The position numbers and the translations under genes are program-made. DNA of 52,378 nt, taken from the NCBI GenBank assembly GCA_028715295.1, contig JAQUSD010000003.1:1-52378 (forward strand), written 5' to 3'. The stretch is from Candidatus Nanoarchaeia archaeon. GTDB lineage: Archaea > Nanobdellota > Nanobdellia > JAQUSD01. Positions within the stretch are counted from its first letter, which is position 1, and each line of letters begins with the position of its first letter. This document shows, in pieces, positions 1,673-20,078 of this stretch. The notes under the pieces were generated by a model that did not search any database, was not told the origin of the DNA, and saw only the letters and a list, made by a program, of their open reading frames with translations.

Positions 1673-2824
1673 TTATAACCTTTTTTCAAGAGCAATAAGA
1701 TTATGTAATTTGTTATTTTTAATAAGCAGGGTATCTTCAACCCGGATTCCATATCTGTTTGGGAAATATAATCCCGGCTCAACAGCAAAAATCATGTTAT
1801 TTTTAAAAGTTTCATTATTGAACATTCCAATACTTGGGTTTTCATGTATGTCCAAGCCAACACCATGTCCAAGCTGATGTATAAACCCCTCTTTAGTTTT
1901 CTCATCCTTCCTGTAAGTCATATGTCCTTTTGATTCAAAAAATGAACACGCCCCATCAAAAACGTCCTTTATCTGTACATCTTCAAGTATCTTATCGGCA
2001 ACATAATCGTATGTGTTTATAACATCACTGTAGACTTTTCTGACTTCTTTATCAACATTACCTATTACAATTGTGCGGGTCATGTCTGTAAAATAAAGGC
2101 TTTCATGACAACGAGGATATAAATCAATAACTATTGGTGAATGAGATTTAATAGGAACACAATCATCTCCTTTATAGTGCATATTCGAAGATTTTGGGCC
2201 TGAAGCAACAATCATATCGTCCGTATTTTCAAGCCCTTCAATAACCATGTTAATCTTGATGTATTTTTTGACATCGCCAACAGTAACCTTTTCATTGTTT
2301 TTATAAACAAAATTAGAATCTGTCTTAGAGTCTTTGAAGTAGTCAATTGTTTTCTGCATAACTTTTGAAGTTCTTTTTGCTGTATCCTTCATAAATGATA
2401 TCTCCTCATCATCTTTTGTAGCCCTCGCAATAGAGACGGGATTTATTTCAGGATAATCAATACCTATCCCATTAGACTTCATCCTGTCAAATAATTTTCC
2501 TGGAACAGAACCAAACGCAGAAAATTTTTCAATGCCCTCCTCTTCCATTATTCTTTTAATACAATTCATATAAGCGTCTATTCTGCCAAACTCCCTTGTT
2601 TTTGAAATTATATCATAATCAGTATAGTATCTTACATCACCGGAGTACTCTTTTTCAGGCCATGTAAGAAGCACAGGTTTTTTACCAATAGTTTTTATAA
2701 CAAATGAAGAAGAAGTTACCTTGTTCTTTGTGAGGTAATATATATTTGTATCATTGAACTTTCCATGGAGGATAATAGCTTCAACACCCATCTGCCCCAT
2801 AAACTCATCAAGTTCTTTTAACAT
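1673..2824 (-). CDS. Xaa-Pro peptidase, M24B family
   Basis: Metal ligands in DLYPR, TDMTRT, HQLGHGVGLDIHE, EPGLY, RVED. Confidence 0.92.
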   Translation of the reverse strand: MLKELDEFMGQMGVEAIILHGKFNDTNIYYLTKNKVTSSSFVIKTIGKKPVLLTWPEKEYSGDVRYYTDYDIISKTREFGRIDAYMNCIKRIMEEEGIEKFSAFGSVPGKLFDRMKSNGIGIDYPEINPVSIARATKDDEEISFMKDTAKRTSKVMQKTIDYFKDSKTDSNFVYKNNEKVTVGDVKKYIKINMVIEGLENTDDMIVASGPKSSNMHYKGDDCVPIKSHSPIVIDLYPRCHESLYFTDMTRTIVIGNVDKEVRKVYSDVINTYDYVADKILEDVQIKDVFDGACSFFESKGHMTYRKDEKTKEGFIHQLGHGVGLDIHENPSIGMFNNETFKNNMIFAVEPGLYFPNRYGIRVEDTLLIKNNKLHNLIALEKRL

Positions 2825-2876
2825 ACAGATAAAAGTGATAATAAACTTAATAAAACTATGTTACACACAAAGTAAC

Positions 2877-3686
2877 ATGAATAGAATAATTGACTTTCAC
2901 ACTCATTTAGCATTGCAAGCTGAAACATACTCCAAAGTTCTGAAAAAATATAATATAGAAACAGCAGTATGCATACCTTATGACTTTGGAGAGTTTACAT
3001 TCGAACAACTCCTTCATGAATTAAATAATAAACCTGAAGAGTGGGCAAATGGAGTACTCCCAAAATCAGGAAATTACATCAAAAATGTTCTGCAAAGACT
3101 CATCAATATAAATCTTAGATTTCTTGGAGAGATAAAATCCAAAAAAAATATTATCCCAGCGCCATGGATTAGCCCTGAATGTGATGGGCTTGAAGATTTT
3201 ATTGAAAATCCAGAAATCAAAATAATAAAATTTATTCCTGTGCTGGATAATGCAACAAAAGATTATTACACACAAAAAATAATTCCTTATGTTAAACATG
3301 CGGTTGATAATGATAAACTAATAATGATACACACGGGATGGAGGGCAAAAGTAAAACCAATAAGCAAACTGGCCGAACAGTTCCCCCAAGGAAAATTTGT
3401 AATAGCACATATGAAAGAAGACGATGACTTTATGGGACACGATAGGTTCGCTGTTTTAAAGGATAATAAAAATGTATATGTTGAAACATCTTATGGACAA
3501 GGGCCTCATAGAATAGAAACGTATGTTAAGGAGGGTTTTGGTAAAAGAATATTATTCGGTTCAGATTTCAGAACATCAACATCTTCTCTTGAATGGCAGA
3601 TTGGGATGATTAACCTTTCAGAAATAAGTGAAGAGGAAAAACAAGACATATTATACAACAACGCAAAGAAACTTCTAAAAATCTAA
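2877..3686 (+). CDS. Amidohydrolase-family (TIM-barrel) metallohydrolase
   Basis: IDFHTH, IHTG, AHM, ILFGSDF. Start moved to ATG 2877. Confidence 0.85.
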   Translation: MNRIIDFHTHLALQAETYSKVLKKYNIETAVCIPYDFGEFTFEQLLHELNNKPEEWANGVLPKSGNYIKNVLQRLININLRFLGEIKSKKNIIPAPWISPECDGLEDFIENPEIKIIKFIPVLDNATKDYYTQKIIPYVKHAVDNDKLIMIHTGWRAKVKPISKLAEQFPQGKFVIAHMKEDDDFMGHDRFAVLKDNKNVYVETSYGQGPHRIETYVKEGFGKRILFGSDFRTSTSSLEWQIGMINLSEISEEEKQDILYNNAKKLLKI

Positions 3687-4210
3687 ATCTTTCCTATCCA
3701 GTCAACAAAGCCGTATTTAGGACTCTTTAAACCTTTTAACGCTTTTTCAAGAGTTTCTTTTTGTGTCCCCGTTGTTATAATTTCACACGCACGGTGTTTT
3801 TTTTCAAGAGCTTCTATTAAACAAACATCAACAGCCTCAGCCTCAACATTCACTTTTATTTTTGCAGAAGAATAACCCCTCTTAAATAATCTTTTTCTCA
3901 ATATATCAGGAGAACATCTTGTTACAAAACAAATATCAACATATTTTTTATTTATATTGTGAATCAAATGAGAAGAAACCACCAGTTTGTTTTTTGATTT
4001 TTTAATTAAATCCTCAACCTTTTTTTTGAATTTATTAATATCAATAACATCACAATCCCCCAAAAAATCCCTTTTTATAATTAATACTTTATTCTTTTTG
4101 ATAAAATCGTGGATATCAATAAAATCATATTTTAATTTTTTAGCAAGATTTTTTCCAAGAGTTTTCTTTCCTGTGCCCGGGGTTCCTGTTATTATAATCG
4201 CTTTCATCAT
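3683..4210 (-). CDS. Archaeal adenylate kinase, AK6/Fap7 family
   Basis: ITGTPGTGKKT P-loop, SSHLIH, LRKRLFKRGY, NVEAE. Confidence 0.85.
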   Translation of the reverse strand: MMKAIIITGTPGTGKKTLGKNLAKKLKYDFIDIHDFIKKNKVLIIKRDFLGDCDVIDINKFKKKVEDLIKKSKNKLVVSSHLIHNINKKYVDICFVTRCSPDILRKRLFKRGYSSAKIKVNVEAEAVDVCLIEALEKKHRACEIITTGTQKETLEKALKGLKSPKYGFVDWIGKI

Positions 4211-4815
4211 ATATCTATAATAACCCCATTCTTACCTACATTTATTATTTTTGTTCTTCCTATCCTATCTGTAAGTCCGGCGGTTTCGTGTATGTGTCCG
4301 CATAAGCATAAATCAGGCTGAAGTTCTTCAATGGCCTCTCTAACACCTTCACTCCCAGCAGGAACTCCCAAATCATCAACCTTTGTATCAAAAGGAGGAG
4401 CATGAGTCACCATTATTTTTTTATTAAGATTTTTTATTATTTCATGGCTGTATTTTAATTTATTTTTTGTATATGCATCATCAAGCTGGAACAAACCAAT
4501 ATTCGCCCCTCCGCACCCAAAAAAACCAACATCATTTTTTACATGTGTTTTGCAGTGAATGTTTTTGATTAAAGGTTTGTATAATGCTGAAAGAAATTCA
4601 ACAGTAGCGTCAGTTTCATGATTTCCTGGAATGATAAGGGTTTCAATACCATTGTCAGCAAGAAGTCCAACCATGTTGTCAGCATCAAAATCACTCAAAA
4701 GAATATCACCGCAGAGAACTACTACATCAACTTTATTCTCCCCGGCTCTTTTTACAATCCGCTCTATTGCTTTTCTATCTCCATGAATGTCGCTTGCAGC
4801 TAATATCTTTGTCAT
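4207..4815 (-). CDS. Metallophosphoesterase (Icc/calcineurin-like)
   Basis: SDIHG, CGD, GNHE, THAPP, GHIHE. Confidence 0.9.
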   Translation of the reverse strand: MTKILAASDIHGDRKAIERIVKRAGENKVDVVVLCGDILLSDFDADNMVGLLADNGIETLIIPGNHETDATVEFLSALYKPLIKNIHCKTHVKNDVGFFGCGGANIGLFQLDDAYTKNKLKYSHEIIKNLNKKIMVTHAPPFDTKVDDLGVPAGSEGVREAIEELQPDLCLCGHIHETAGLTDRIGRTKIINVGKNGVIIDI

Positions 4816-4840
4816 TTTAAAAGCACCTTCTGTTATGTTT

Positions 4841-6130
4841 TTAAGCTTTTTGTTTATTTTTTAATTTGACTTCTTTAATACCCAACATATATTCCTGAAG
4901 AACTTTTGGTATTCTAAAACCCTCATTTGTTTGATAATTTTCAATAATACAGCATATTGTTCTTTGTATTGCAACAGCAGTAGCATTAAGTGTGTGTATA
5001 TATTCAGATTTTAAATGAGGCTCGGGGCGGTACTTTATACCTGCTCTTCTAGACTGATAATCAGTGCAGTTGCTACATGAACAAAGTTCTCTATATTTCC
5101 CCTGCCCAGGAAACCATCCCTCTAAGTCATATTTTTTAGAAGCAACAACACCCAAATCCCCAGTACATATATTCACAATCCTGTAAGGTATTTTAAGGGC
5201 TTTGTAAAGTTCCTCGGCATTGTTTATCAATTCTTCATGAAACGTCCAGGAATCTTCTGGTTTTGAGAAAATAAACTGTTCGATTTTATCAAACTGGTGA
5301 ACCCTGAATATCCCTTTTGTATCCTTCCCATGAGAGCCAGCTTCTTTTCTAAAACAGGGACTCACACCCGCGTATTTAAGAGGAAGCTTTTCTTTTTCAA
5401 TTATTTCATCCATATGCATTGAACCAAGTGGATGTTCAGCAGTTGCAATAAGATGCAAATCCTCTCCTTCTACTTTGTATATTACATCTTCAAAATCAGA
5501 CAGCGGAACCATACCCTCCATAGCTTTTCTTTTAATCATGAAAGGAGGCTCAATAAGTTCATAGCCCTTTTTGAATAAATGTTCAAGAGCAAATCTCTGC
5601 AGAGCCAAATTGAGAAGCACAAGTTCATTTTTAAGATAATAAAATCTTGAACCGGAAACCTTTGCAGCCCTTTCAATATCAGCAATCCCCAGACCTTCAA
5701 GTATTTCAGTACTGCTTTTTGGATTAAAATCAAATTCAGGAAATTTACCCCATTTTCTTATTTCAACATTTTCACTGTCATCAGAACCATAAGGAACACT
5801 TTCATGGATCAGATTTGGAAGAAGCTTTCTAAGTTCATTTACCCTCTCCTCAAATTTTACAACCTTAATCTCTATTTTATTTATTTTATCTGTAATCTCC
5901 CTTGTTTCCTTTATTTTTGCTTCTTTATCTTTTTGGGAAACACCTCCAAGACTTCTTGAAATAGCATTTCTTTTTGCTTTGAGTTTTTCAGCTTCCTGCA
6001 AGGCGACTCTCCACTTTTTATCATAATCAAGCAAATCATCAAGCATTTTTATTATTGAAGGATTTTTTCTTCTTTCAAAATTAGCTCTCACAAAATCTGT
6101 TTTATCTCTTATTAAGTTCATGTCCAGCAT
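4841..6130 (-). CDS. serS: Seryl-tRNA synthetase
   Basis: N-terminal coiled coil; LIATAEHPL, FRKEAG, GIFRVHQFDKIE, ELCSCSNCTDYQSRR, HTLNAT. Confidence 0.98.
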   Translation of the reverse strand: MLDMNLIRDKTDFVRANFERRKNPSIIKMLDDLLDYDKKWRVALQEAEKLKAKRNAISRSLGGVSQKDKEAKIKETREITDKINKIEIKVVKFEERVNELRKLLPNLIHESVPYGSDDSENVEIRKWGKFPEFDFNPKSSTEILEGLGIADIERAAKVSGSRFYYLKNELVLLNLALQRFALEHLFKKGYELIEPPFMIKRKAMEGMVPLSDFEDVIYKVEGEDLHLIATAEHPLGSMHMDEIIEKEKLPLKYAGVSPCFRKEAGSHGKDTKGIFRVHQFDKIEQFIFSKPEDSWTFHEELINNAEELYKALKIPYRIVNICTGDLGVVASKKYDLEGWFPGQGKYRELCSCSNCTDYQSRRAGIKYRPEPHLKSEYIHTLNATAVAIQRTICCIIENYQTNEGFRIPKVLQEYMLGIKEVKLKNKQKA

Positions 6131-7527: not shown

Positions 7528-8008
7528 TGAAATTAAGTCTGTAATTGAAAATCTCAGAAATATTGATACTTCACTTAAACTAGTTGCAGAAGGGAGTTTA
7601 CATATTACTCTTGCATTTCTCGGAGAAATCTCAGAGTCTCAGAAAGATGAGATTTTGCAGTTATTAAACGAAATCAACCACAACACCCTTTTTCAGGCAG
7701 AAATGAAAGGTTTGGAAGCAATAAGTCCTCAGTTTTTAAGAGTAATCTCTGTAGCTATAAATTCAGAAGAACTTGAAAAAACAAGAACAGAACTCGTTGA
7801 AAAGTTAAATAATTTAAAAATTAAAGCAGATAGTCATCCAGCACATTTAACATTAGCAAGAACGAGAACGCAGTTAAAGAAAAAAGAACTATTGCAATAT
7901 ATCAACGACAACAGGAACAAGTCATTCGGAACATTTCAGATAAGTAAATTAAGTTTAAAGAAATCAACATTAACACCTAAAGGCGCAATATACAAAGATT
8001 TGAATTAA
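7490..8008 (+). CDS. thpR: RNA 2',3'-cyclic phosphodiesterase (2H phosphoesterase)
   Basis: MRAFIAVD, HITLAFLG, HLTLAR, STLTPKGAIY. Start at ATG 7490; overlaps the MazG gene by 38 nt. Confidence 0.92.
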   Translation: MRAFIAVDVPVNNEIKSVIENLRNIDTSLKLVAEGSLHITLAFLGEISESQKDEILQLLNEINHNTLFQAEMKGLEAISPQFLRVISVAINSEELEKTRTELVEKLNNLKIKADSHPAHLTLARTRTQLKKKELLQYINDNRNKSFGTFQISKLSLKKSTLTPKGAIYKDLN

Positions 8009-12256: not shown

Positions 12257-14257
12257 ATGAAAAAAGGAGAAATGTCATCTTTAGATTTAATGGCTGTAAT
12301 AAATGAAATTAAAGAACTGCTTACAGGAGCAAAGCTCCAAAAGGTATATCAGTCTGAAAAAGGAGAATTTTATTTTTACTTTTATAAACAAAGAGAATAT
12401 GTTCTGCATATAATATCAGGAGAGATGATGCATTTAACCAATTATAAAAAAGAATTCCCGCAAGTACCCCCACATTTTTGCATGTTCTTAAGAAAATATC
12501 TAAAAAACGCAGTCCTTTTGAAAATAGTCCAGCCAAAATCCCAAAGAATTGCTGAACTTCATTTTAAGACCTCTAATGAAGAACCATACATCTTAATTTT
12601 TGAACTTTTTTCAAAAGGCAACATAGTTTTATGCGATTCTAATCACATAATAATACAACCTTTGTTATTCCAGAAATGGGCAAGCAGAACAATAAAGCCA
12701 AAGGAAAAATATATTTACCCTCCAACCACAACGCCTGATTTAAGAAGTCTTGACGAAGCAAAATTCATAGAACTTATGTCAAAATCAGAGAAAGCAGACG
12801 CAGTGCGTTTTTTAGCAATAGATATTGGGTTGGGAGGTGTTTATTCTGAATTTATTCTTTCAATTTCAGGAATTGACAAGTATGAATTACCAGATAAAAT
12901 TAACAAAAAAACAGCTTCAAAGCTTTACAATGAACTTATGAAACTTGTTGTAAAAATCGCAACAGGAGATACTGAACCAAACATAATACACTCAAATGGG
13001 TTGCCGTTGTTCGCATCACCAGTTTATCTTGGAAAAACAAATTTAACCGAGTTTAATTCATTTAATGATGCAGTAGACGAATTTTTTGCAAAAGATGAAA
13101 AAACAAAAGAAAATCTAGAAAAAACAAAAAAAACCAATTTAAGGGTAAACGAGTATGTTAAGAGATATGAAGAACAGAAAAAAACCGTTGAAGAATACGA
13201 AAAAAAATCAAAAGTGATGAAATCAGAAGCCGAACTTCTCATGAGAAACAAGTTTGTAATCCAGAATATAATAAGCAAGATACTTTCTTCAAGAAAAAGC
13301 GGATATTCATGGGAAGATATATTACTTAGAGTAAAACAGGAAAAAGAAGCGGGTGTTGATGAAGCCCAAATTATTAAACTAATTGAACCCCATCTCGGGA
13401 AAATAATTATTGATGTTGAAGGAAAAGACCATGAATTTGATTTGCACGATGATGTTGGGTATGTAATAAATGAAAAGTATGAAGATTCTAAAAAATTAGA
13501 AGCAAAAGTTGAAGGGGCCAAATCAGCAATGCTTGAAACTAAAACAAAAATAGAACAGATAAAAAAAGAAGAAGAATCTTCTCCAGTAAAAGAATCTTCG
13601 CTTAAAAAAATAGAGAAAAAAACACCAGCAAGATGGTATGAAAATTATAGGTGGTTTATTTCAACAGACAATTATTTGGTAGTTTCAGGAAAAGATGCTT
13701 CACAAAACGAAATTTTAATAAGAAAATATATGGAATTAAATGATAAAGTGTTCCATGCGGACATCCACGGTTCCCCATTTACAATTGTGAAATCAAAAGA
13801 AAAAAAAATACCTGAAAATACCCTAAAAGAAGCAGCAATACAGACTGCCTCTTATTCAAAAGCGTGGAAAGAGGGGCTAGGAAATGTTGATGTTTATTGC
13901 GTTGAGCCCATACAGGTTAAAAAAAGTGGACCTTCAGGGGAGTATCTTGCAAGAGGCTCTTTTATGATACATGGCAAGAAAAATTATTTTAATAATACTG
14001 TGCTTGAAATAGCTGTTGGTGTACTTATAAAAGACAGCAAATACCAGATTATCTCAGGTCCTTATGAAGCTATAAAAAAACATTCAAGATATTTTGTCAG
14101 GCTTTCTCCTGGACAACAAGACGCTAAAATCCTTGGTTCTGAGGTTTTAACTAAATTAAAGCTTAAGGTTTATGGGAATGATGCGGGCGTCTTAGAGATG
14201 ATTAAGCCTTCTGATATAGAGCCGTTTATTCCAGGAGGCTCAAGATTATTATCCTGA
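12257..14257 (+). CDS. rqcH: NFACT-family ribosome quality control protein (RqcH/Rqc2)
   Basis: SSLDL, FCMFLRKYL, ELFSKGNIVL, long coiled coil, WYENYRWF, GKDASQNE, FHADIHGSP, GEYLARGSFMIHG. Confidence 0.93.
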   Translation: MKKGEMSSLDLMAVINEIKELLTGAKLQKVYQSEKGEFYFYFYKQREYVLHIISGEMMHLTNYKKEFPQVPPHFCMFLRKYLKNAVLLKIVQPKSQRIAELHFKTSNEEPYILIFELFSKGNIVLCDSNHIIIQPLLFQKWASRTIKPKEKYIYPPTTTPDLRSLDEAKFIELMSKSEKADAVRFLAIDIGLGGVYSEFILSISGIDKYELPDKINKKTASKLYNELMKLVVKIATGDTEPNIIHSNGLPLFASPVYLGKTNLTEFNSFNDAVDEFFAKDEKTKENLEKTKKTNLRVNEYVKRYEEQKKTVEEYEKKSKVMKSEAELLMRNKFVIQNIISKILSSRKSGYSWEDILLRVKQEKEAGVDEAQIIKLIEPHLGKIIIDVEGKDHEFDLHDDVGYVINEKYEDSKKLEAKVEGAKSAMLETKTKIEQIKKEEESSPVKESSLKKIEKKTPARWYENYRWFISTDNYLVVSGKDASQNEILIRKYMELNDKVFHADIHGSPFTIVKSKEKKIPENTLKEAAIQTASYSKAWKEGLGNVDVYCVEPIQVKKSGPSGEYLARGSFMIHGKKNYFNNTVLEIAVGVLIKDSKYQIISGPYEAIKKHSRYFVRLSPGQQDAKILGSEVLTKLKLKVYGNDAGVLEMIKPSDIEPFIPGGSRLLS

Positions 14258-14355
14258 AAGTCTCAAAGTCTCACTAAAATTTGAGACTTTTGAGACTTTG
14301 ATAAAAAGAAAGTCTCAAAGTCTCACTAAAATTTGAGACTTTTGAGACTTTGATA
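14256..14355. repeat. Two identical 48-bp units (period 52 bp), each an imperfect palindrome of four AGTCTCA/TGAGACT motifs
   Basis: GAAAGTCTCAAAGTCTCACTAAAATTTGAGACTTTTGAGACTTTGATA at 14256-14303 and 14308-14355, separated by AAAA. Confidence 0.98.
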
Positions 14356-14363
14356 CCTTACAA

Positions 14364-14380
14364 CAGAAAGCAATATATAT
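14364..14380 (+). promoter_or_regulatory. Putative BRE/TATA promoter of the wHTH gene
   Basis: CAGAAAG-C-AATATATAT ending 22 nt before ATG 14402. Confidence 0.6.
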
Positions 14381-14401
14381 CCTTGATTCATTTATTTTTT
14401 T

Positions 14402-14887
14402 ATGAGTTATGAAGAAGCTGAAGAACAAAAACAAAAAAAGACTGAGATACACCTACACCAAAGTGATTTAGGAAGCCTTTTCTCGCACATATCAAAACAA
14501 CTAAGTCTTATGGATGAAAAGCAAAAAATGCTAATGGAAGGCCAGATAAATATGATTGAACATCAAATAATGACTATTTCTGCGCTTAAAAAACACGACG
14601 AAAAGATAAATACAAACGTTTCAAATGTCAATAAAAATGTTTTATCTGGGTTTGAAGCCTTGGAAAACCTTTCAAATCTTAAAAACAAAGTTGAAAAAGA
14701 ATTTAAGAGCGAATTGGGTAAGCAAATGCTTGAGATTTTAAATCAAAAAAAAGAAATGACAACCTCTGAAATAATTGAAGCCTTTAAAAAATATGCTTCA
14801 AGAGCAACAATATTCAGAACTTTAAGCGAATTAACAGAAAGAAACCTTGTGGAAAGAGTTCACGGAAAGATTTTAATCAAAAATTGA
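14402..14887 (+). CDS. Coiled-coil + C-terminal winged helix-turn-helix DNA-binding protein
   Basis: Helical heptad-like residues ~25-100; C-terminus MLEILNQKKEMTTSEIIEAFKKYASRATIFRTLSELTERNLVERVHGKILI fits the wHTH pattern. Confidence 0.8.
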   Translation: MSYEEAEEQKQKKTEIHLHQSDLGSLFSHISKQLSLMDEKQKMLMEGQINMIEHQIMTISALKKHDEKINTNVSNVNKNVLSGFEALENLSNLKNKVEKEFKSELGKQMLEILNQKKEMTTSEIIEAFKKYASRATIFRTLSELTERNLVERVHGKILIKN

Positions 14888-15327
14888 ACACACATAATGA
14901 TAAAAATAGACATTTTGAAATTTCTACAAACGAAAAATATAATTAATAGTTCACCCAAAAAATAAATCATATCTTTGAAAAATCATAATTAAAACATTTA
15001 ATTTTAAAAATATCTGCCCCAAAATAAAATCATGAATAATATCCCACTAAAATTAAAATTTATTTATTGGATATATTAAAAATAAAATAAAATATTTTTT
15101 TCATAATTATTCAGAATAAAACCATAATTTAATTGATAATAATGATTTTAAACACACCGCATAAGTTTTTTAAATAAAAATAAATAATCCAGTTAAAAAA
15201 TAATAAACTTTTAAAAGAAGAATATCAAAATATTTTATTATTTGAGTTTGATGGACAAAGAAAAAACATAAAAGTAATAATCACTATTACCTAAGAACGA
15301 CTTTTAAAATTTTTAAATTAAATTTAA
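14888..15327. other. 440-bp extremely AT-rich non-coding tract between convergent genes (candidate DNA-unwinding element)
   Basis: Hand count 73 G+C in 440 nt (~17%); 31-nt pure A/T run at 15071-15101; no ORF in the supplied track. Confidence 0.7.
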
Positions 15328-18015
15328 TTAATTTTTCCAAAATTCCCTCGTCCTCAAATAATTTTTCTCTCTCCTAATTATCTCTTTAATCAATTCGTCT
15401 TCATTTTCATAATCTCTGCATAGAATTCTATAAGCATTTGTCGCCCCAACACCCACACCAGCAAAAATTAAACAGGTTTTTTTGCCGTGTGATAAATATA
15501 AATGTGCTTTTTTTTCTAAATCTTTAGCTATTTTGATATCTTCACCAATAATTTTTTTATTTTTTACGATTTTTTTAACTATTTTTTCAAAATCTTTATA
15601 TTCAGGGAAGAAGGTTATCAATCCCGAATCACATTTTATACAGTTTATCTTATCTTTTGCAGAAATATAAGTATTTTTTCCAAGGTATTGTCCACATTTT
15701 ATACAATAAAACCTAAACACTTTATTTTTTAATCGGTTTTTTACATGTTCTACCACTTCCTTGTAAGCATTTTCAGGGTTTACAAATTCATTTAAATGGA
15801 ATTTTAATGAAAATTCACCAAATGGAGAGACATTACCATCATTTCTTTCAACCTTTATCAGCTTTTTCCTAATTTTTTCAAGTATTTTCTCAGAATTTTC
15901 AATATCCATATGCTTTTTTATTTCTTCATTGAAGCTTTCTTCATAAACTATGCTGTCTTTATAAATTTCTATCAGCTTTTTCACAATCCTCTTATTGATT
16001 TCAGCATTTTTTTTCAATACCCCGCAACGTTTTGCAACATTTACAAAAGTCCAGTTAAAATTTGAATTGTTTTTTAGAGACAGCTTCAAAATCTCTTTAA
16101 GCCACCCTTCACCTATGTTTAAAAGTGAGGCATTAATAGCATCAAAATTTCTGTCAGGGAGTCTGATTACAGCGCCGTAAGCATCAGATTTCAAAGCGAT
16201 AGAAATTCCGTATTTTGATGATAGAAGTGCTGTAAGAGCTGTATAGAGCGTTTTGTTGATTTTAGTTCCAAAAGATGAATGGACTACTAAATATTCCCCA
16301 TTTATCTCTAAAAAAATTCTATCAACGGAGTGAAGGAAATATTTTTTTTGTCTATCAATGAACTCGTCTTTAATTTTGCTTCTTAATTCATCTGCTGTTT
16401 TTGCTATCAAATATGGAACAGGAATATTTTCTCCATCCCACACAGGAATATTATTGCTTGTTGCACCAATTCTTATTACAAATATCCTATCTCCATCAAG
16501 CTTTGTGACTCTCCAAGGCTCCCCTCTACATACAAACTGCTTTCCAAGTTCAATATTCTCTGCTACAAACTCTTCGTCTAAAACACCTATTTTTGAGTTA
16601 TTCTGCTCATTTATAACAAAATATGTTTTTATTGAGGGAATCATGCTTAAATTGTCATAATAATACAACATGCCTTTTCTTGTTTTGCCAATAACATCCC
16701 CAAATTCTCCAATTAGATTAACCTGTTTCATGAAATCAAGAATTTTCCTAAATTCTTCTTTAGACAAATTCCTATAAACATGAGATTTTTTTACTGAGTT
16801 ATAAACAAACTCTATTTTTGGGTCTCTGAAATCCATACAATATCCTACAATCCCATGGATAAGCACATCATACGGCTTTTCAATAATCTCAAGAGTCTCA
16901 AGATTTTTGAGATTTTGGACAATTGAAACAGCTTCAAGGTAATCATGCGTATTGGTTGTTAATAAAATCCCTTTTGAAACCCTGTCTTTTGAATGTCCTG
17001 AACGTCCAACCCTTTGAATCAAACGCGTAACTTCTCTTGGTGAAGTAAACTGGACAACAGTTTCTATATCTCCCACATCAATACCTAATTCCATAGAAGA
17101 AGTGCAGACTATTGCTTTAATTTCTCCTTTTCTAAACCCGTCTTCTGTTGAAAGCCTACTCTCTTTACTCAGGCTTGAATGATGAACTTCTACTTTTTCA
17201 TTTATCCTTTTGAGTTTTGAACCTAAAAGCTCAGCAGTCTGCCTTGTATTTACAAATACAAGGGTTGATTTTGAGCAGTTTATTATTTCATTTATCTTTC
17301 TAACAGCCCACGCAACTTCTTTACCAACCCCTTGTTTTTCAGCATATTCTAAATCCTCTCCTTCAGGATTTGCTTTAAGAACTTCAATGTCATACTTCTT
17401 GTCAGCATCAAGTCTTACAGTCTCACAGTTTTGAGACAAATAATCCCTTACACCGGAAATATTGCTCACAGTTGCTGAAAGCCCTATTTTCTGGAAGTTT
17501 GGAGATAAAAGTCTCAATCTTTCCAATCCAATGCTTAATTGGGCCCCTCTTTTATCCCCAGCCAATTCGTGAATTTCATCTATAATAACATACTTCAGCT
17601 TTTTCAGATGTTCTCTAAGCCGTTTTCCAATCAATAATGCCTGTACAGTTTCAGGAGTTGTAATCATTATTGAGGGAGGATTTTTACTTTGTTTAACTCT
17701 CTCGCTTTGTTTTGTATCCCCATGCCTGACATCAATTTTAATACCCAATTTTACTCCCCATTGAACAATCCTGTCAAATATGTCTCTGTTGAGAGCTTTA
17801 AGTGGAGTAATATAAAGGCATTTTATACCTTCTTCCTTATCATTTATTAAGTCATTAAACACCCCAATCATACTGGCTTGTGTTTTTCCATAACCTGTCG
17901 GAGCAGTGATAAGAACATCCTTCCCTTCATGGACATGTTTAAATGAGACTTTCTGGTACTCAAATAAGTCCCCATATTCTTCTCCAATTATTTCTGTGAT
18001 TTTAGGATGTAACAT
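15328..18015 (-). CDS. lhr: Lhr-core ATP-dependent DEAH/DEIH helicase
   Basis: APTGYGKT, DEIH, GLSAT, HHSSLS, CTSSMELGID, QRVGRSGH; C-terminal CxxC...CxxC. Confidence 0.95.
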   Translation of the reverse strand: MLHPKITEIIGEEYGDLFEYQKVSFKHVHEGKDVLITAPTGYGKTQASMIGVFNDLINDKEEGIKCLYITPLKALNRDIFDRIVQWGVKLGIKIDVRHGDTKQSERVKQSKNPPSIMITTPETVQALLIGKRLREHLKKLKYVIIDEIHELAGDKRGAQLSIGLERLRLLSPNFQKIGLSATVSNISGVRDYLSQNCETVRLDADKKYDIEVLKANPEGEDLEYAEKQGVGKEVAWAVRKINEIINCSKSTLVFVNTRQTAELLGSKLKRINEKVEVHHSSLSKESRLSTEDGFRKGEIKAIVCTSSMELGIDVGDIETVVQFTSPREVTRLIQRVGRSGHSKDRVSKGILLTTNTHDYLEAVSIVQNLKNLETLEIIEKPYDVLIHGIVGYCMDFRDPKIEFVYNSVKKSHVYRNLSKEEFRKILDFMKQVNLIGEFGDVIGKTRKGMLYYYDNLSMIPSIKTYFVINEQNNSKIGVLDEEFVAENIELGKQFVCRGEPWRVTKLDGDRIFVIRIGATSNNIPVWDGENIPVPYLIAKTADELRSKIKDEFIDRQKKYFLHSVDRIFLEINGEYLVVHSSFGTKINKTLYTALTALLSSKYGISIALKSDAYGAVIRLPDRNFDAINASLLNIGEGWLKEILKLSLKNNSNFNWTFVNVAKRCGVLKKNAEINKRIVKKLIEIYKDSIVYEESFNEEIKKHMDIENSEKILEKIRKKLIKVERNDGNVSPFGEFSLKFHLNEFVNPENAYKEVVEHVKNRLKNKVFRFYCIKCGQYLGKNTYISAKDKINCIKCDSGLITFFPEYKDFEKIVKKIVKNKKIIGEDIKIAKDLEKKAHLYLSHGKKTCLIFAGVGVGATNAYRILCRDYENEDELIKEIIRREKNYLRTREFWKN

Positions 18016-18113: not shown

Positions 18114-19394
18114 ATGGAATATGATGAGGTTTTTAAAAGAGTTCTGAAAGAGATTAATCCAAAACAATCAGAGATAAAAAAAGCAAACCAGGTTAGCATA
18201 GAACTTAAAAAAATTCTTGAAAAATCCGCAAAAGAACTTAAGATTGATTGTGAGATTTTTCTTGGCGGTTCAATTGCAAAGGGAACCTGGCTTTCAGGAA
18301 AGCACGATATCGACTTTTTCATACGCCTTAACTCAAAATACAATGATTTATCACAATACGCAGGTATGGTGATTTCCAATGCATTATCAACCAAAAATTC
18401 AAAATTCATTATTTCAAAAGTCCATGGCTCAAGAGATTATTATAAGATGGATTACAGGGGTTTTGAAGTTGAATTTGTTCCTGTACTCAAAATCTCAAAA
18501 GTCTCAGACTTTTTAAATATAACAGACGCCTCGCCCTTCCATGTTAAATATGTTCAGAAAGAACTAAAAAAGAACCCTAAACTAAAAGAAGAAATACTTC
18601 TGCTCAAGCAGTTTTCAAAAGCAAACGGCTTTTATGGGGCTGAAACATGGATTTCCGGTTTTTCAGGTTATGTTACAGAACTTTTGATACTCCATTACGG
18701 TTCTTTTTTTAATCTTCTTAAATCAGCATTAGGATGGAAGGGAAAGATTTACATTGATACAAAGAAGTATTACAAAAGTCTTGGAGAAGCTATTAAGAAG
18801 CTGGACAAGTCAAAAACACGAGGGCCTTTAGTTTTAATTGATCCCGTACAAAAAGAAAGAAATGCAGGAGCGAGCATAAATCAAAAAGCACTTGATAAAT
18901 TCATAAACTCAGCTGAAAAATTCCTTGAAAAACCTTTGGAAAACATGTTCAAAAAGGAAAAGATAACAATAAAAGACTTAGAAAAAACAGCAGAAAGCAA
19001 TAACCATGAGCTGATATATTTAGTTTATAAAATTAAAAGCAAAGCAAAAAAAGATGTTTTCTTTGCAAAAATGCAGAGAAATTTAAGAAAATTCAGCGCA
19101 TTTATTGAAAAAGAGAATGTAAAAGTGTATAACAAAGGAATTCTGCCGTCTGAAACTAACCTTTATTTGTGGCTTGAAACAGAAAAAATAACCTCTCTTA
19201 AACCTTATGTTCAGATTGGGCCTTCAGAAACCCGCAAAGATGCGGTCAAAAACTTTAATTTAAAATGGAAAAACCATCCAAGAACAATCAAGGGACCGTA
19301 TATTAAAGACGGAAAAGTCTGCTTTGATGTAAAACCAAGATATAGAATCTTAGACACCTTAATAAAAGAAGCAAAAAAATTCTCTAATTTATAA
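18114..19394 (+). CDS. cca: CCA-adding enzyme, archaeal class I
   Basis: GSIAKGTWLSGKHDIDFF, SPFH, YGAE, GFSGYVTELL, LIDPVQKERNA. Confidence 0.96.
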   Translation: MEYDEVFKRVLKEINPKQSEIKKANQVSIELKKILEKSAKELKIDCEIFLGGSIAKGTWLSGKHDIDFFIRLNSKYNDLSQYAGMVISNALSTKNSKFIISKVHGSRDYYKMDYRGFEVEFVPVLKISKVSDFLNITDASPFHVKYVQKELKKNPKLKEEILLLKQFSKANGFYGAETWISGFSGYVTELLILHYGSFFNLLKSALGWKGKIYIDTKKYYKSLGEAIKKLDKSKTRGPLVLIDPVQKERNAGASINQKALDKFINSAEKFLEKPLENMFKKEKITIKDLEKTAESNNHELIYLVYKIKSKAKKDVFFAKMQRNLRKFSAFIEKENVKVYNKGILPSETNLYLWLETEKITSLKPYVQIGPSETRKDAVKNFNLKWKNHPRTIKGPYIKDGKVCFDVKPRYRILDTLIKEAKKFSNL

Positions 19395-20078
19395 TTAAAG
19401 CATTTTAGTTAAGTCAAGAAGCAGAACCTCTTTAATATCTACGTGCTTCATAAACTTTTCAGTTGATTCTCCCGCCCCCCCAACAAGTTCATTGAATGCT
19501 GGGACAAGAATAATCTTCTTCTTTACACCATGAAACTCGCACTCACCAATAAACCACGCTTTATTTGGGGTTATTGATTCAACCCGGTCCCTTAACTTGT
19601 ATTCCGGGTGCACATGTCCAGCAATTATAATCTTCACTTTACTCATCATTTCCTTGCTTGGGAATGCATGTCCATGTATAAATCCAAAGCCACCCAGAGC
19701 CTGCTCCTTGATTATTTTAACTTTGACTTTTTCTTTCCTTGCTAAGTCTTCAAGCCCGGCATCATGGTTGCCTCTTACAATAATTATTTCTTTGAAAACG
19801 CTTGAAAGCTTTTCAATGAAAAAGGGGATTTCATTCTGCTCCTGCCAGCTTATCAAGGGTATGCTGTGTTTAAAGTCTCCAAGTATCATGAGACTTTGAG
19901 ACTTTGTTCTTTTACCTATTTTAATGAGTTTTTCAAGCATTTTAGAGGTTTGAGACACAACCGTTATGCCTCTACGTCTTAATTCTTTCTCAACACCAAT
20001 ATGCATGTCAGCAACAATAAGGGTTTTTCCTATACAAAAGGAAGCAGTATTTTTGTTAAATCTTACCTTCATAATCAT
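19395..20078 (-). CDS. Metallophosphoesterase, COG1407-like (Lhr-associated MPE type)
   Basis: ADMHIG, LGDFKH, GNHD, HGH, GHVHP, PAFN. Confidence 0.9.
   Translation of the reverse strand: MIMKVRFNKNTASFCIGKTLIVADMHIGVEKELRRRGITVVSQTSKMLEKLIKIGKRTKSQSLMILGDFKHSIPLISWQEQNEIPFFIEKLSSVFKEIIIVRGNHDAGLEDLARKEKVKVKIIKEQALGGFGFIHGHAFPSKEMMSKVKIIIAGHVHPEYKLRDRVESITPNKAWFIGECEFHGVKKKIILVPAFNELVGGAGESTEKFMKHVDIKEVLLLDLTKML

Follow-up and report, generated by a model that had tools for sequence, protein, structure and literature searches.

An orphan winged-helix protein encoded beside a palindromic AGTCTCA array in a reduced archaeal genome

The window analysed here is the whole of a 52.4-kb contig (C2) from a 0.78-Mb (777-kb) archaeal genome of 33.5 % G+C that is ~94 % complete. 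It encodes a 161-residue protein, hereafter the orphan, whose gene lies directly downstream of a palindromic array of the heptad AGTCTCA and directly upstream of a tract of very AT-rich DNA. The features at the locus are the following:

14256-14303, no strand: array unit 1, GAAAGTCTCAAAGTCTCA-ctaaaatt-TGAGACTTTTGAGACTTTGATA, with two direct and two inverted AGTCTCA heptads; a hairpin
14308-14355, no strand: array unit 2, identical to unit 1 (100 %, repeat family D2) and 52 nt downstream of it
14365-14379, plus strand: core promoter of the orphan gene, with a putative transcription factor B recognition element (BRE; AGAAAGC, purine-rich) and a TATA box, AATATATA
14402-14887, plus strand: orphan gene, an open frame of 161 aa in 30 % G+C DNA
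14402-14713, plus strand: residues 1-104, an acidic start and then one or more long amphipathic helices with heptad-like periodicity, the presumed oligomerisation domain
14714-14887, plus strand: residues 105-161 and the stop codon, a winged helix-turn-helix (HTH) at the extreme C-terminus
14914-15290, plus strand: pseudogene of yjbQ (UPF0047), disrupted by two or more frameshifts and numerous in-frame stops, filling the tract 14888-15327

The orphan gene is very probably real: besides its open frame, it has a domain match above cut-off (see below), a TATA-like element (AATATATA) at -30..-23 relative to its ATG, and codon usage that is native to the genome (synonymous codon use at the 18th percentile of long genes; G+C content at third codon positions 0.273, vs a genome mean of 0.262). 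Genome-wide, across 616 open reading frames of at least 150 aa, TATA-like hexamers pile up sharply at -31..-29 from the ATG, so that this organism probably makes leaderless mRNAs from most of its genes, and the distance of its TATA element predicts a leaderless mRNA for the orphan as well; the AGAAAGC next to it would then be the BRE of this promoter. A second assembly of the same sample is identical over 14326-15316 (0 mismatches) and its contigs are broken inside the array, as expected of a repeat.

The orphan protein is built of two parts. Its C-terminus is a winged helix: residues 107-156 match Pfam HTH_DeoR (PF08220; E 1.3e-7, 31.7 bits vs a cut-off of 21), and ~15 further winged-helix families, including MarR, TrmB, Penicillinase_R, FUR and ArsR, match the same region below their cut-offs. 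This is the single HTH region, hence one winged helix per chain, and neither Pfam nor NCBIfam finds a ligand-binding or sensor domain, DeoR_C included. Membership of the known full-length families was considered and rejected. The orphan is not a full-length DeoR family regulator, given that its HTH is C-terminal, that it has 161 aa and that it lacks DeoR_C (GlpR-type NCBIfam models score 18-23 bits vs cut-offs of at least 300); nor is it an Lrs14 or Sta1 regulator, with NCBIfam scores of 19.8 bits (cut-off 90) and 20.8 bits (cut-off 80). Modelled alone by AlphaFold2 without an alignment, the C-terminal domain forms a three-helix bundle in HTH arrangement with the wing unmodelled; its best Foldseek matches are Lrp/AsnC, Fur/PerR and ArsR-type regulators, which all carry HTH domains but are non-significant (E > 0.6). 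A sequence search of the PDB gave nothing for the full protein and only matches of E > 0.3 for the C-terminal domain, the nearest being archaeal Lrp/AsnC and Lrs14-like proteins.

The N-terminal part is helical. In an AlphaFold2 model of the full protein, also without an alignment, a single helix runs over residues 3-115 (predicted local distance difference test ~73-96), with no confident winged helix. Hydrophobicity over residues 20-104 has a period of 3.5 residues (power 67.6, vs 34.5 at 3.6 and at most 13.1 at the other periods tested) and the protein has zero prolines, so that a long helix, the hydrophobic repeat of a coiled coil and the lack of helix breakers are found together. We presume that the ~100 N-terminal residues are a coiled-coil-type oligomerisation domain, the oligomeric state itself being read from these properties. 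An imperfect internal repeat of 51 nt (17 aa), at 14614-14641 and 14665-14692 (repeat family D5; NVSNVNKNV... and NLSNLKNKV...), suggests that this region grew through internal duplication.

The protein is, judged by these sequence searches, a true orphan. It finds itself only, both in a word-indexed search of 5.8 billion clustered proteins and in an exhaustive HMMER search of 1.84 billion representatives, and has no matches in viral contigs or plasmids. When 400 genomes from the same class were searched in six frames, the matches all centred on the C-terminal HTH and none extended N-terminal of residue 58; the best two (G025 and G040) were rejected as homologues, being membrane-anchored winged-helix proteins with an unrelated N-terminus. 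An earlier note on this DNA had described a protein with a helical N-terminus predicted to oligomerise, a C-terminal winged helix and no ligand-binding domain, had called it an orphan, and had placed it between the array and the AT-rich tract. All of this stands: the array occupies 14256-14355 directly upstream and the tract follows directly downstream. The note had further named the orphan as the best candidate binder of AGTCTCA, and it keeps that place, as no other DNA-binding gene adjoins the array.

The array is unique in this genome. Each unit is a 48-nt imperfect palindrome (AAAGTCTCA-AAGTCTCA, an 8-nt loop, TGAGACTT-TTGAGACTTT) with arms of 17 and 18 nt and one bulge, and the units repeat with a period of 52 nt. 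The array spans -146 to -47 relative to the orphan ATG. Its last heptad reaches -53 and leaves ~16 bp to the BRE-like element. Eight of the 47 AGTCTCA copies of the whole genome sit in it, within 100 bp, and its stems exceed every perfect palindrome found elsewhere in the genome, where only 26 have stems of at least 11. It is not multi-copy genome-wide, unlike repetitive extragenic palindromic (REP) elements or miniature inverted-repeat transposable elements (MITEs). A literature search for the motif returned human PRDX1 short hairpin RNA sequences and nothing else.

The context is one of housekeeping genes, in the order topoisomerase I, methionine aminopeptidase, pilin-like protein, NFACT/RqcH, orphan, convergent Lhr helicase, CCA-adding enzyme and metallophosphoesterase; Rfam and tRNA scans of the window gave no matches. 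The genes that flank the locus are:

12257-14257, plus strand: NFACT/RqcH gene (Pfam NFACT_N 1.6e-50, NFACT-R_1 2.2e-36), whose TGA stop at 14255-14257 overlaps the start of the array
15328-18015, minus strand: Lhr-type helicase gene (Pfam DEAD, Helicase_C, WH_Lhr, DEAD_assoc), convergent with the orphan gene

The closest homologues of the NFACT product are labelled Woesearchaeota and Nanoarchaeota, which makes this a DPANN-type organism. The relatives in our genome collection all belong to the same class and none to the same order; three of them are syntenic here (NFACT 37-43 % identical) and were compared, two of these being also scanned for AGTCTCA. In all three, an intact yjbQ directly follows NFACT on the same strand, at spacings from a 1-nt overlap to 44 nt, with Lhr and the CCA enzyme further on; one of them also has topoisomerase I and methionine aminopeptidase upstream of NFACT, as in the window. 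In the lineage of the window only, array and orphan gene (~630 bp) are placed between the members of this ancestral NFACT-yjbQ pair, which reads as an insertion, although reading the sequence revealed no target-site duplication, flanking repeat or boundary of the ~630-bp segment. The slot between NFACT and Lhr is variable in the relatives. Its small genes are unrelated to the orphan and encode, besides YjbQ, a 70-aa histone-fold-like protein (DUF1931-type), a cysteine-rich zinc-ribbon-like protein, a cupin, a lysine-rich DUF59-like protein, and also a prenyltransferase and a tRNA synthetase; three of the slot genes have the following positions:

L018:6108-6320, minus strand: gene in a relative's NFACT-Lhr slot
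L018:6424-6834, plus strand: gene in the same slot
L020:5402-5761, plus strand: gene in the NFACT-Lhr slot at locus L020

No winged-helix gene and no array lies between NFACT and Lhr in any of the three relatives, and no AGTCTCA cluster occurs in the two that were scanned for the motif. Gene and motif are thus lineage-specific together, a single co-occurrence (n = 1) that lends weak support to the orphan as the binder.

What has become of yjbQ explains the AT-rich tract. The tract measures 440 bp at 16.6 % G+C, and the AT content of the genome, taken over 300 nt, reaches its maximum in it (a second AT-rich candidate, on contig C32, was rejected as a run of N). Two pieces of a relative's YjbQ align to it by tblastn, in collinear order but each in a frame of its own (E 4.5e-5 in a search of the whole genome; one piece reads IIQLKNNKLLKEEYQNILLFEFDGQRKNIKVIITI against ILPIKNNNLVRGIWQNILFLEFDGPRISRKVNIYV); Pfam UPF0047 (PF01894) has its sole match in the genome here (E 1.1e-3, with 2 TAA inside); and a hidden Markov model of the three relatives' YjbQ covers 14914-15288 with its positions 4-129 and runs across multiple stops (E 3.4e-7; the next-best six-frame match in the genome has E > 2). 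The conserved N-terminal and central motifs of YjbQ are recognisable in the appropriate frames, and the genome has no other yjbQ copy. These alignments identify the tract as a yjbQ pseudogene, broken by frameshifts and riddled with stop codons, whose composition drifts towards AT, and not as an element made for unwinding.

Our best reading of the locus, which we hold tentatively and would place a little short of probable, is that the orphan is a winged-helix factor, oligomerised by its coiled coil, that binds the AGTCTCA array and regulates its own gene; oligomerisation, binding and autoregulation are steps that we infer, binding from adjacency. The ~100 N-terminal residues would form a coiled-coil-type domain that yields dimers or higher oligomers, the C-terminal winged helix would read the AGTCTCA half-sites, and the two 48-bp units upstream of the BRE and TATA box would be the main operator of the orphan gene. 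Several winged helices linked in one oligomer could fill the 2+2 half-sites of each unit and so exert feedback on transcription. This feedback could be activation or an architecture-dependent repression, because the sites lie upstream of the core promoter and not over it. Weaker mini-palindromes in neighbouring genes, described below, may be secondary sites. As to its history, array and gene would have inserted together between NFACT and yjbQ, and yjbQ would then have decayed into the AT-rich tract. What inclines us this way, if not yet to call it probable, is the sum of a real gene, a heptad-periodic N-terminus, a unique array close to the gene's own BRE, the lack of any other adjacent regulator, the co-occurrence of gene and array, and an arrangement that is standard for autoregulators. 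The simplest view of the orphan, in short, is that of an ordinary winged-helix autoregulator that happens to lack relatives.

Several points weigh against this interpretation: (i), the array overlaps neither the BRE and TATA box nor the start site, which is not the position of a classical repressor; (ii), it begins in the NFACT stop codon and folds into two strong RNA hairpins, so that it could serve the NFACT transcript; (iii), a half-site spacing of 8-9 bp is met more typically with ribbon-helix-helix proteins such as MetJ, omega and ParG than with winged helices; (iv), AGTCTCA palindromes occur in unrelated bacteria without an orphan-like protein; (v), the structure models are weak, being made without an alignment, with no wing and with fold matches of E > 0.6 only; and (vi), none of the searches yielded orphan homologues in which covariation with an upstream motif could be followed.

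Points (ii) and (iv) feed an alternative that we consider unlikely, if worth keeping in sight, namely that the array works independently of the orphan, either as hairpins in which the NFACT/RqcH transcript would end, stabilising it or aiding its termination, or as a selfish palindromic element, with the orphan regulating other targets or binding something else. Since the array starts in the NFACT stop and no run of at least five T follows that stop until the T7 at 14395-14401, read-through NFACT transcripts would carry both hairpins, and the predicted fold of 14240-14401 is very stable (two strong hairpins, -47.7 kcal/mol, z-score -7.07). Yet hairpin terminators are no feature of this genome, as the scarcity of long perfect palindromes indicates, and archaeal termination needs no hairpins. 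Moreover, by our own reading of the sequences, the mismatches of the weaker copies are not consistently G-U-compatible on the transcribed strand, and the array, far from being multi-copy like REP elements or MITEs, is lineage-specific together with the orphan gene.

The bacterial palindromes also speak for an array that is independent of the orphan, given that they are intergenic and have different neighbours. Exact-pattern scans of genome and metagenome collections returned, in unrelated bacteria and metagenome contigs, palindromes with 2-4 AGTCTCA heptads per arm, beside varying genes:

L010:4556-4616: AGTCTCA palindrome
L013:1922-1985: AGTCTCA palindrome, Gemmatimonadales-like locus
L015:1141-1205: AGTCTCA palindrome
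L011:4489-4566: AGTCTCA palindrome
L012:5818-5867: AGTCTCA palindrome
L014:1259-1313: AGTCTCA palindrome

Three of these six loci are homologous and Gemmatimonadales-like, one is from a Thermoanaerobaculia genome, one is a mobile-element-like locus of Bdellovibrionota and one is a metagenome contig. By our reading of the translated open reading frames, the palindrome at L013 presumably lies between a ribD-like gene and a gene for a giant repeat protein, and that of Thermoanaerobaculia between what we take to be pyrR-like and pyrB-like genes. The palindromes are low in G+C and conspicuous against a 71 % G+C genome. Their number far exceeds chance for a pattern with 30 specified bases (by our own estimate ~3e-5 would be expected), but tandem-octamer hairpins are of low complexity, and as relatives of the array locus these palindromes were rejected, coming from unrelated organisms and having different neighbours. 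Viral contigs gave zero matches for the array pattern and likewise zero for a control pattern, which makes that scan uninformative.

The weaker copies of the motif, which we call satellites, raise a different question. Exact AGTCTCA copies beyond the array crowd into 16.8-20 kb of the window (7 vs 0.13 expected, Poisson P ~1e-10), 11 of the 17 convergent half-site pairs of the genome fall within 7.5-19.9 kb, and in an unbiased nhmmer search of the genome with one array unit, five of the six best non-self matches lie within 7.6-19.9 kb, that is, in 1.6 % of the genome. Several satellites repeat the design of the array, with two direct heptads, a loop of 6-8 nt and one or more inverted heptads; they are listed here together with two single heptads:

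7627-7654, no strand: mini-palindrome, AATCTCAgAGTCTCA-gaaaga-TGAGATT, inside a LigT-like gene
16885-16914: mini-palindrome inside the lhr gene
17411-17438: mini-palindrome inside the lhr gene
17510: single heptad inside the lhr gene
17944: single heptad inside the lhr gene
18491-18510, no strand: satellite, AATCTCAAAAGTCTCAGACT, inside the CCA-adding enzyme gene (cca)
19872-19905, no strand: best satellite, AAAGTCTCCAAGTATCATGAGACTTTGAGACTTT, in the metallophosphoesterase gene; the top non-self match in the genome (nhmmer E 0.039), with an exact 17-mer of the array arm

The clustering is real; it may stem from selection acting on secondary sites for binding or from a neutral process that works locally. 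All these sites lie within coding regions and away from promoters, which argues against a plain regulon, and often in variable segments of the proteins; in Lhr, the segments concerned are variable or gapped among relatives. Elsewhere in the genome, 17 nt of the array arm recur exactly (AAAGTCTCAAAGTCTCA, minus strand) at C29:3460-3476 (L024), inside the gene for a 1024-aa coiled-coil protein (2363-5437) and 1.8 kb from the gene of a MinD/ParA-like ATPase (911-1687).

The satellites allow the orphan to be seen as an architectural, centromere-like protein that nucleates on the array and bridges or spreads, by way of its coiled coil, to sites over ~12 kb. The resulting higher-order nucleoprotein domain would serve to organise or segregate the chromosome, and autoregulation would come as a side effect. 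We regard this as rather unlikely, although the strength of the clustering by all three measures and its unusual coding location speak for it, as do the 17-mer beside a MinD/ParA-like ATPase gene and the precedent of AspA, a winged-helix protein that nucleates and spreads (PMC5120986). On the other side, the satellites are weak one by one (nhmmer E 0.04 to 55); a synonymous-recoding test gave small P values, but its sites had been chosen for their motif match, so that it is biased and we discount it; and a neutral, distance-dependent process such as short-patch templated conversion from the array could also cluster sites. The centromere analogy of the earlier note finds no partner at the locus either: no ParA-type ATPase, ParB or SegA is encoded in or near it, the neighbours being NFACT, the yjbQ pseudogene and Lhr, and the AAA_31/ParA-MinD-like genes of the genome are confined to contigs C31 and C29. 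The orphan thus differs from the characterised archaeal centromere binders SegB, AspA and HpaB, all of which are co-transcribed with a ParA-type ATPase (PMC5120986; PMC13722703). That orphan, array and at least five weaker palindromes in housekeeping genes over ~12 kb, perhaps with the site on C29, make up a new, ParB-independent centromere-like or domain-organising system of a reduced, DPANN-type archaeon is a speculation that we think improbable.

The last alternative goes back to the other analogy of the earlier note, with replication initiators. The genome has a canonical origin elsewhere, in a 455-bp gap directly upstream of its single orc1/cdc6 gene:

C25:19886-20331 (L005:167-612): replication origin with four 26-nt repeats of the origin recognition box (ORB) type (ACCCCTTGATTTCCAGTGGAAC..., ACCCCTTGATTTCCAGTGGAACATAT), an inverted mini-ORB and an AT-rich core

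A motif search found no ORB-like motif in or near the AT-rich tract and the orphan locus. Between them, this origin and the identity of the tract as a pseudogene take away most of what supported the comparison with WhiP at oriC3 and with Rep and its iterons. A secondary origin captured from an extrachromosomal element, with the orphan as initiator, the array as iterons and the tract as unwinding element, is suggested superficially by the order of array, winged-helix gene and most AT-rich stretch and by a lineage-specific unit in a variable slot, but appears very improbable for a protein of 161 aa with a single winged helix, native-like codon usage, no similarity to Cdt1/WhiP, Orc1 or Rep beyond the generic winged helix (Pfam, NCBIfam, PDB, plasmid and viral searches), and a tract that is collinear with the relatives' intact yjbQ. 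The remaining probability goes to an orphan that does not bind DNA specifically, or to something that we have not considered.

The solid results of this analysis are mostly corrective, in that the AT-rich tract is a pseudogene and the true origin lies elsewhere. If the orphan does bind the array, the locus would be a clean minimal case of a newly arisen or family-less DNA-binding protein that appears together with its site in a very small archaeal genome, caught at the point where its insertion and the loss of the adjacent yjbQ coincide. Of greater interest would then be the weaker sites clustered in nearby housekeeping genes, as a hint of a local chromosome-organising function; to our knowledge, segregation and chromatin organisation are almost unknown in this archaeal group.

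Among known systems, the C-terminal 55 residues of the orphan resemble the winged helices of DeoR-type, Lrs14 and ArsR-type regulators, HTH_DeoR scoring above its cut-off, but these families carry the winged helix at the N-terminus, ahead of a sensor or dimerisation domain, whereas in the orphan it sits at the extreme C-terminus behind a coiled-coil-like domain of ~100 residues that has no homologues. The initiators compare in setting rather than in make-up. WhiP, a Cdt1-like initiator at the Sulfolobus oriC3, and the Rep proteins of iteron plasmids have two winged-helix domains and stand beside a functional AT-rich unwinding element; they share with the orphan a winged-helix protein encoded beside repeats, which in their case are binding sites, while the orphan has one winged helix, with a dead gene for its AT-rich neighbour and the ORB origin on another contig. 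In geometry, the AGTCTCA array comes closest to the metboxes of MetJ, the heptads of omega and the tetramer boxes of ParG, which are units of 7-8 bp, direct and inverted, near a promoter. These are ribbon-helix-helix operator systems, and the orphan has no ribbon-helix-helix signature. SegB also binds DNA through a ribbon-helix-helix.

The archaeal centromere binders offer the nearest parallels in arrangement. SegB and HpaB bind imperfect palindromes upstream of their operon (PMC5120986) and are, like the orphan, small lineage-restricted proteins with palindromes upstream; they are encoded downstream of a ParA-type ATPase and are ribbon-helix-helix proteins (HpaB is reported to bind DNA through this motif, PMC13722703), neither of which is true of the orphan. 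AspA of the Sulfolobus plasmid pNOB8 is a winged-helix centromere binder that nucleates at a palindromic site ahead of aspA and oligomerises or spreads along the DNA (PMC5120986). The orphan would resemble it as a small winged-helix protein whose palindromic site precedes its gene, should the array at -146..-47 prove to be its binding site; the differences are that aspA overlaps parB and parA in one cassette while the orphan has no adjacent ParB or ParA, that AspA has a single 23-bp palindrome as against an array of 2 x 48 bp made of heptads, and that no sequence similarity was detected between the two proteins. A palindrome upstream of the protein's own gene is in any case the standard arrangement of autoregulated winged-helix proteins, and it is that of AspA and SegB as well (PMC5120986).

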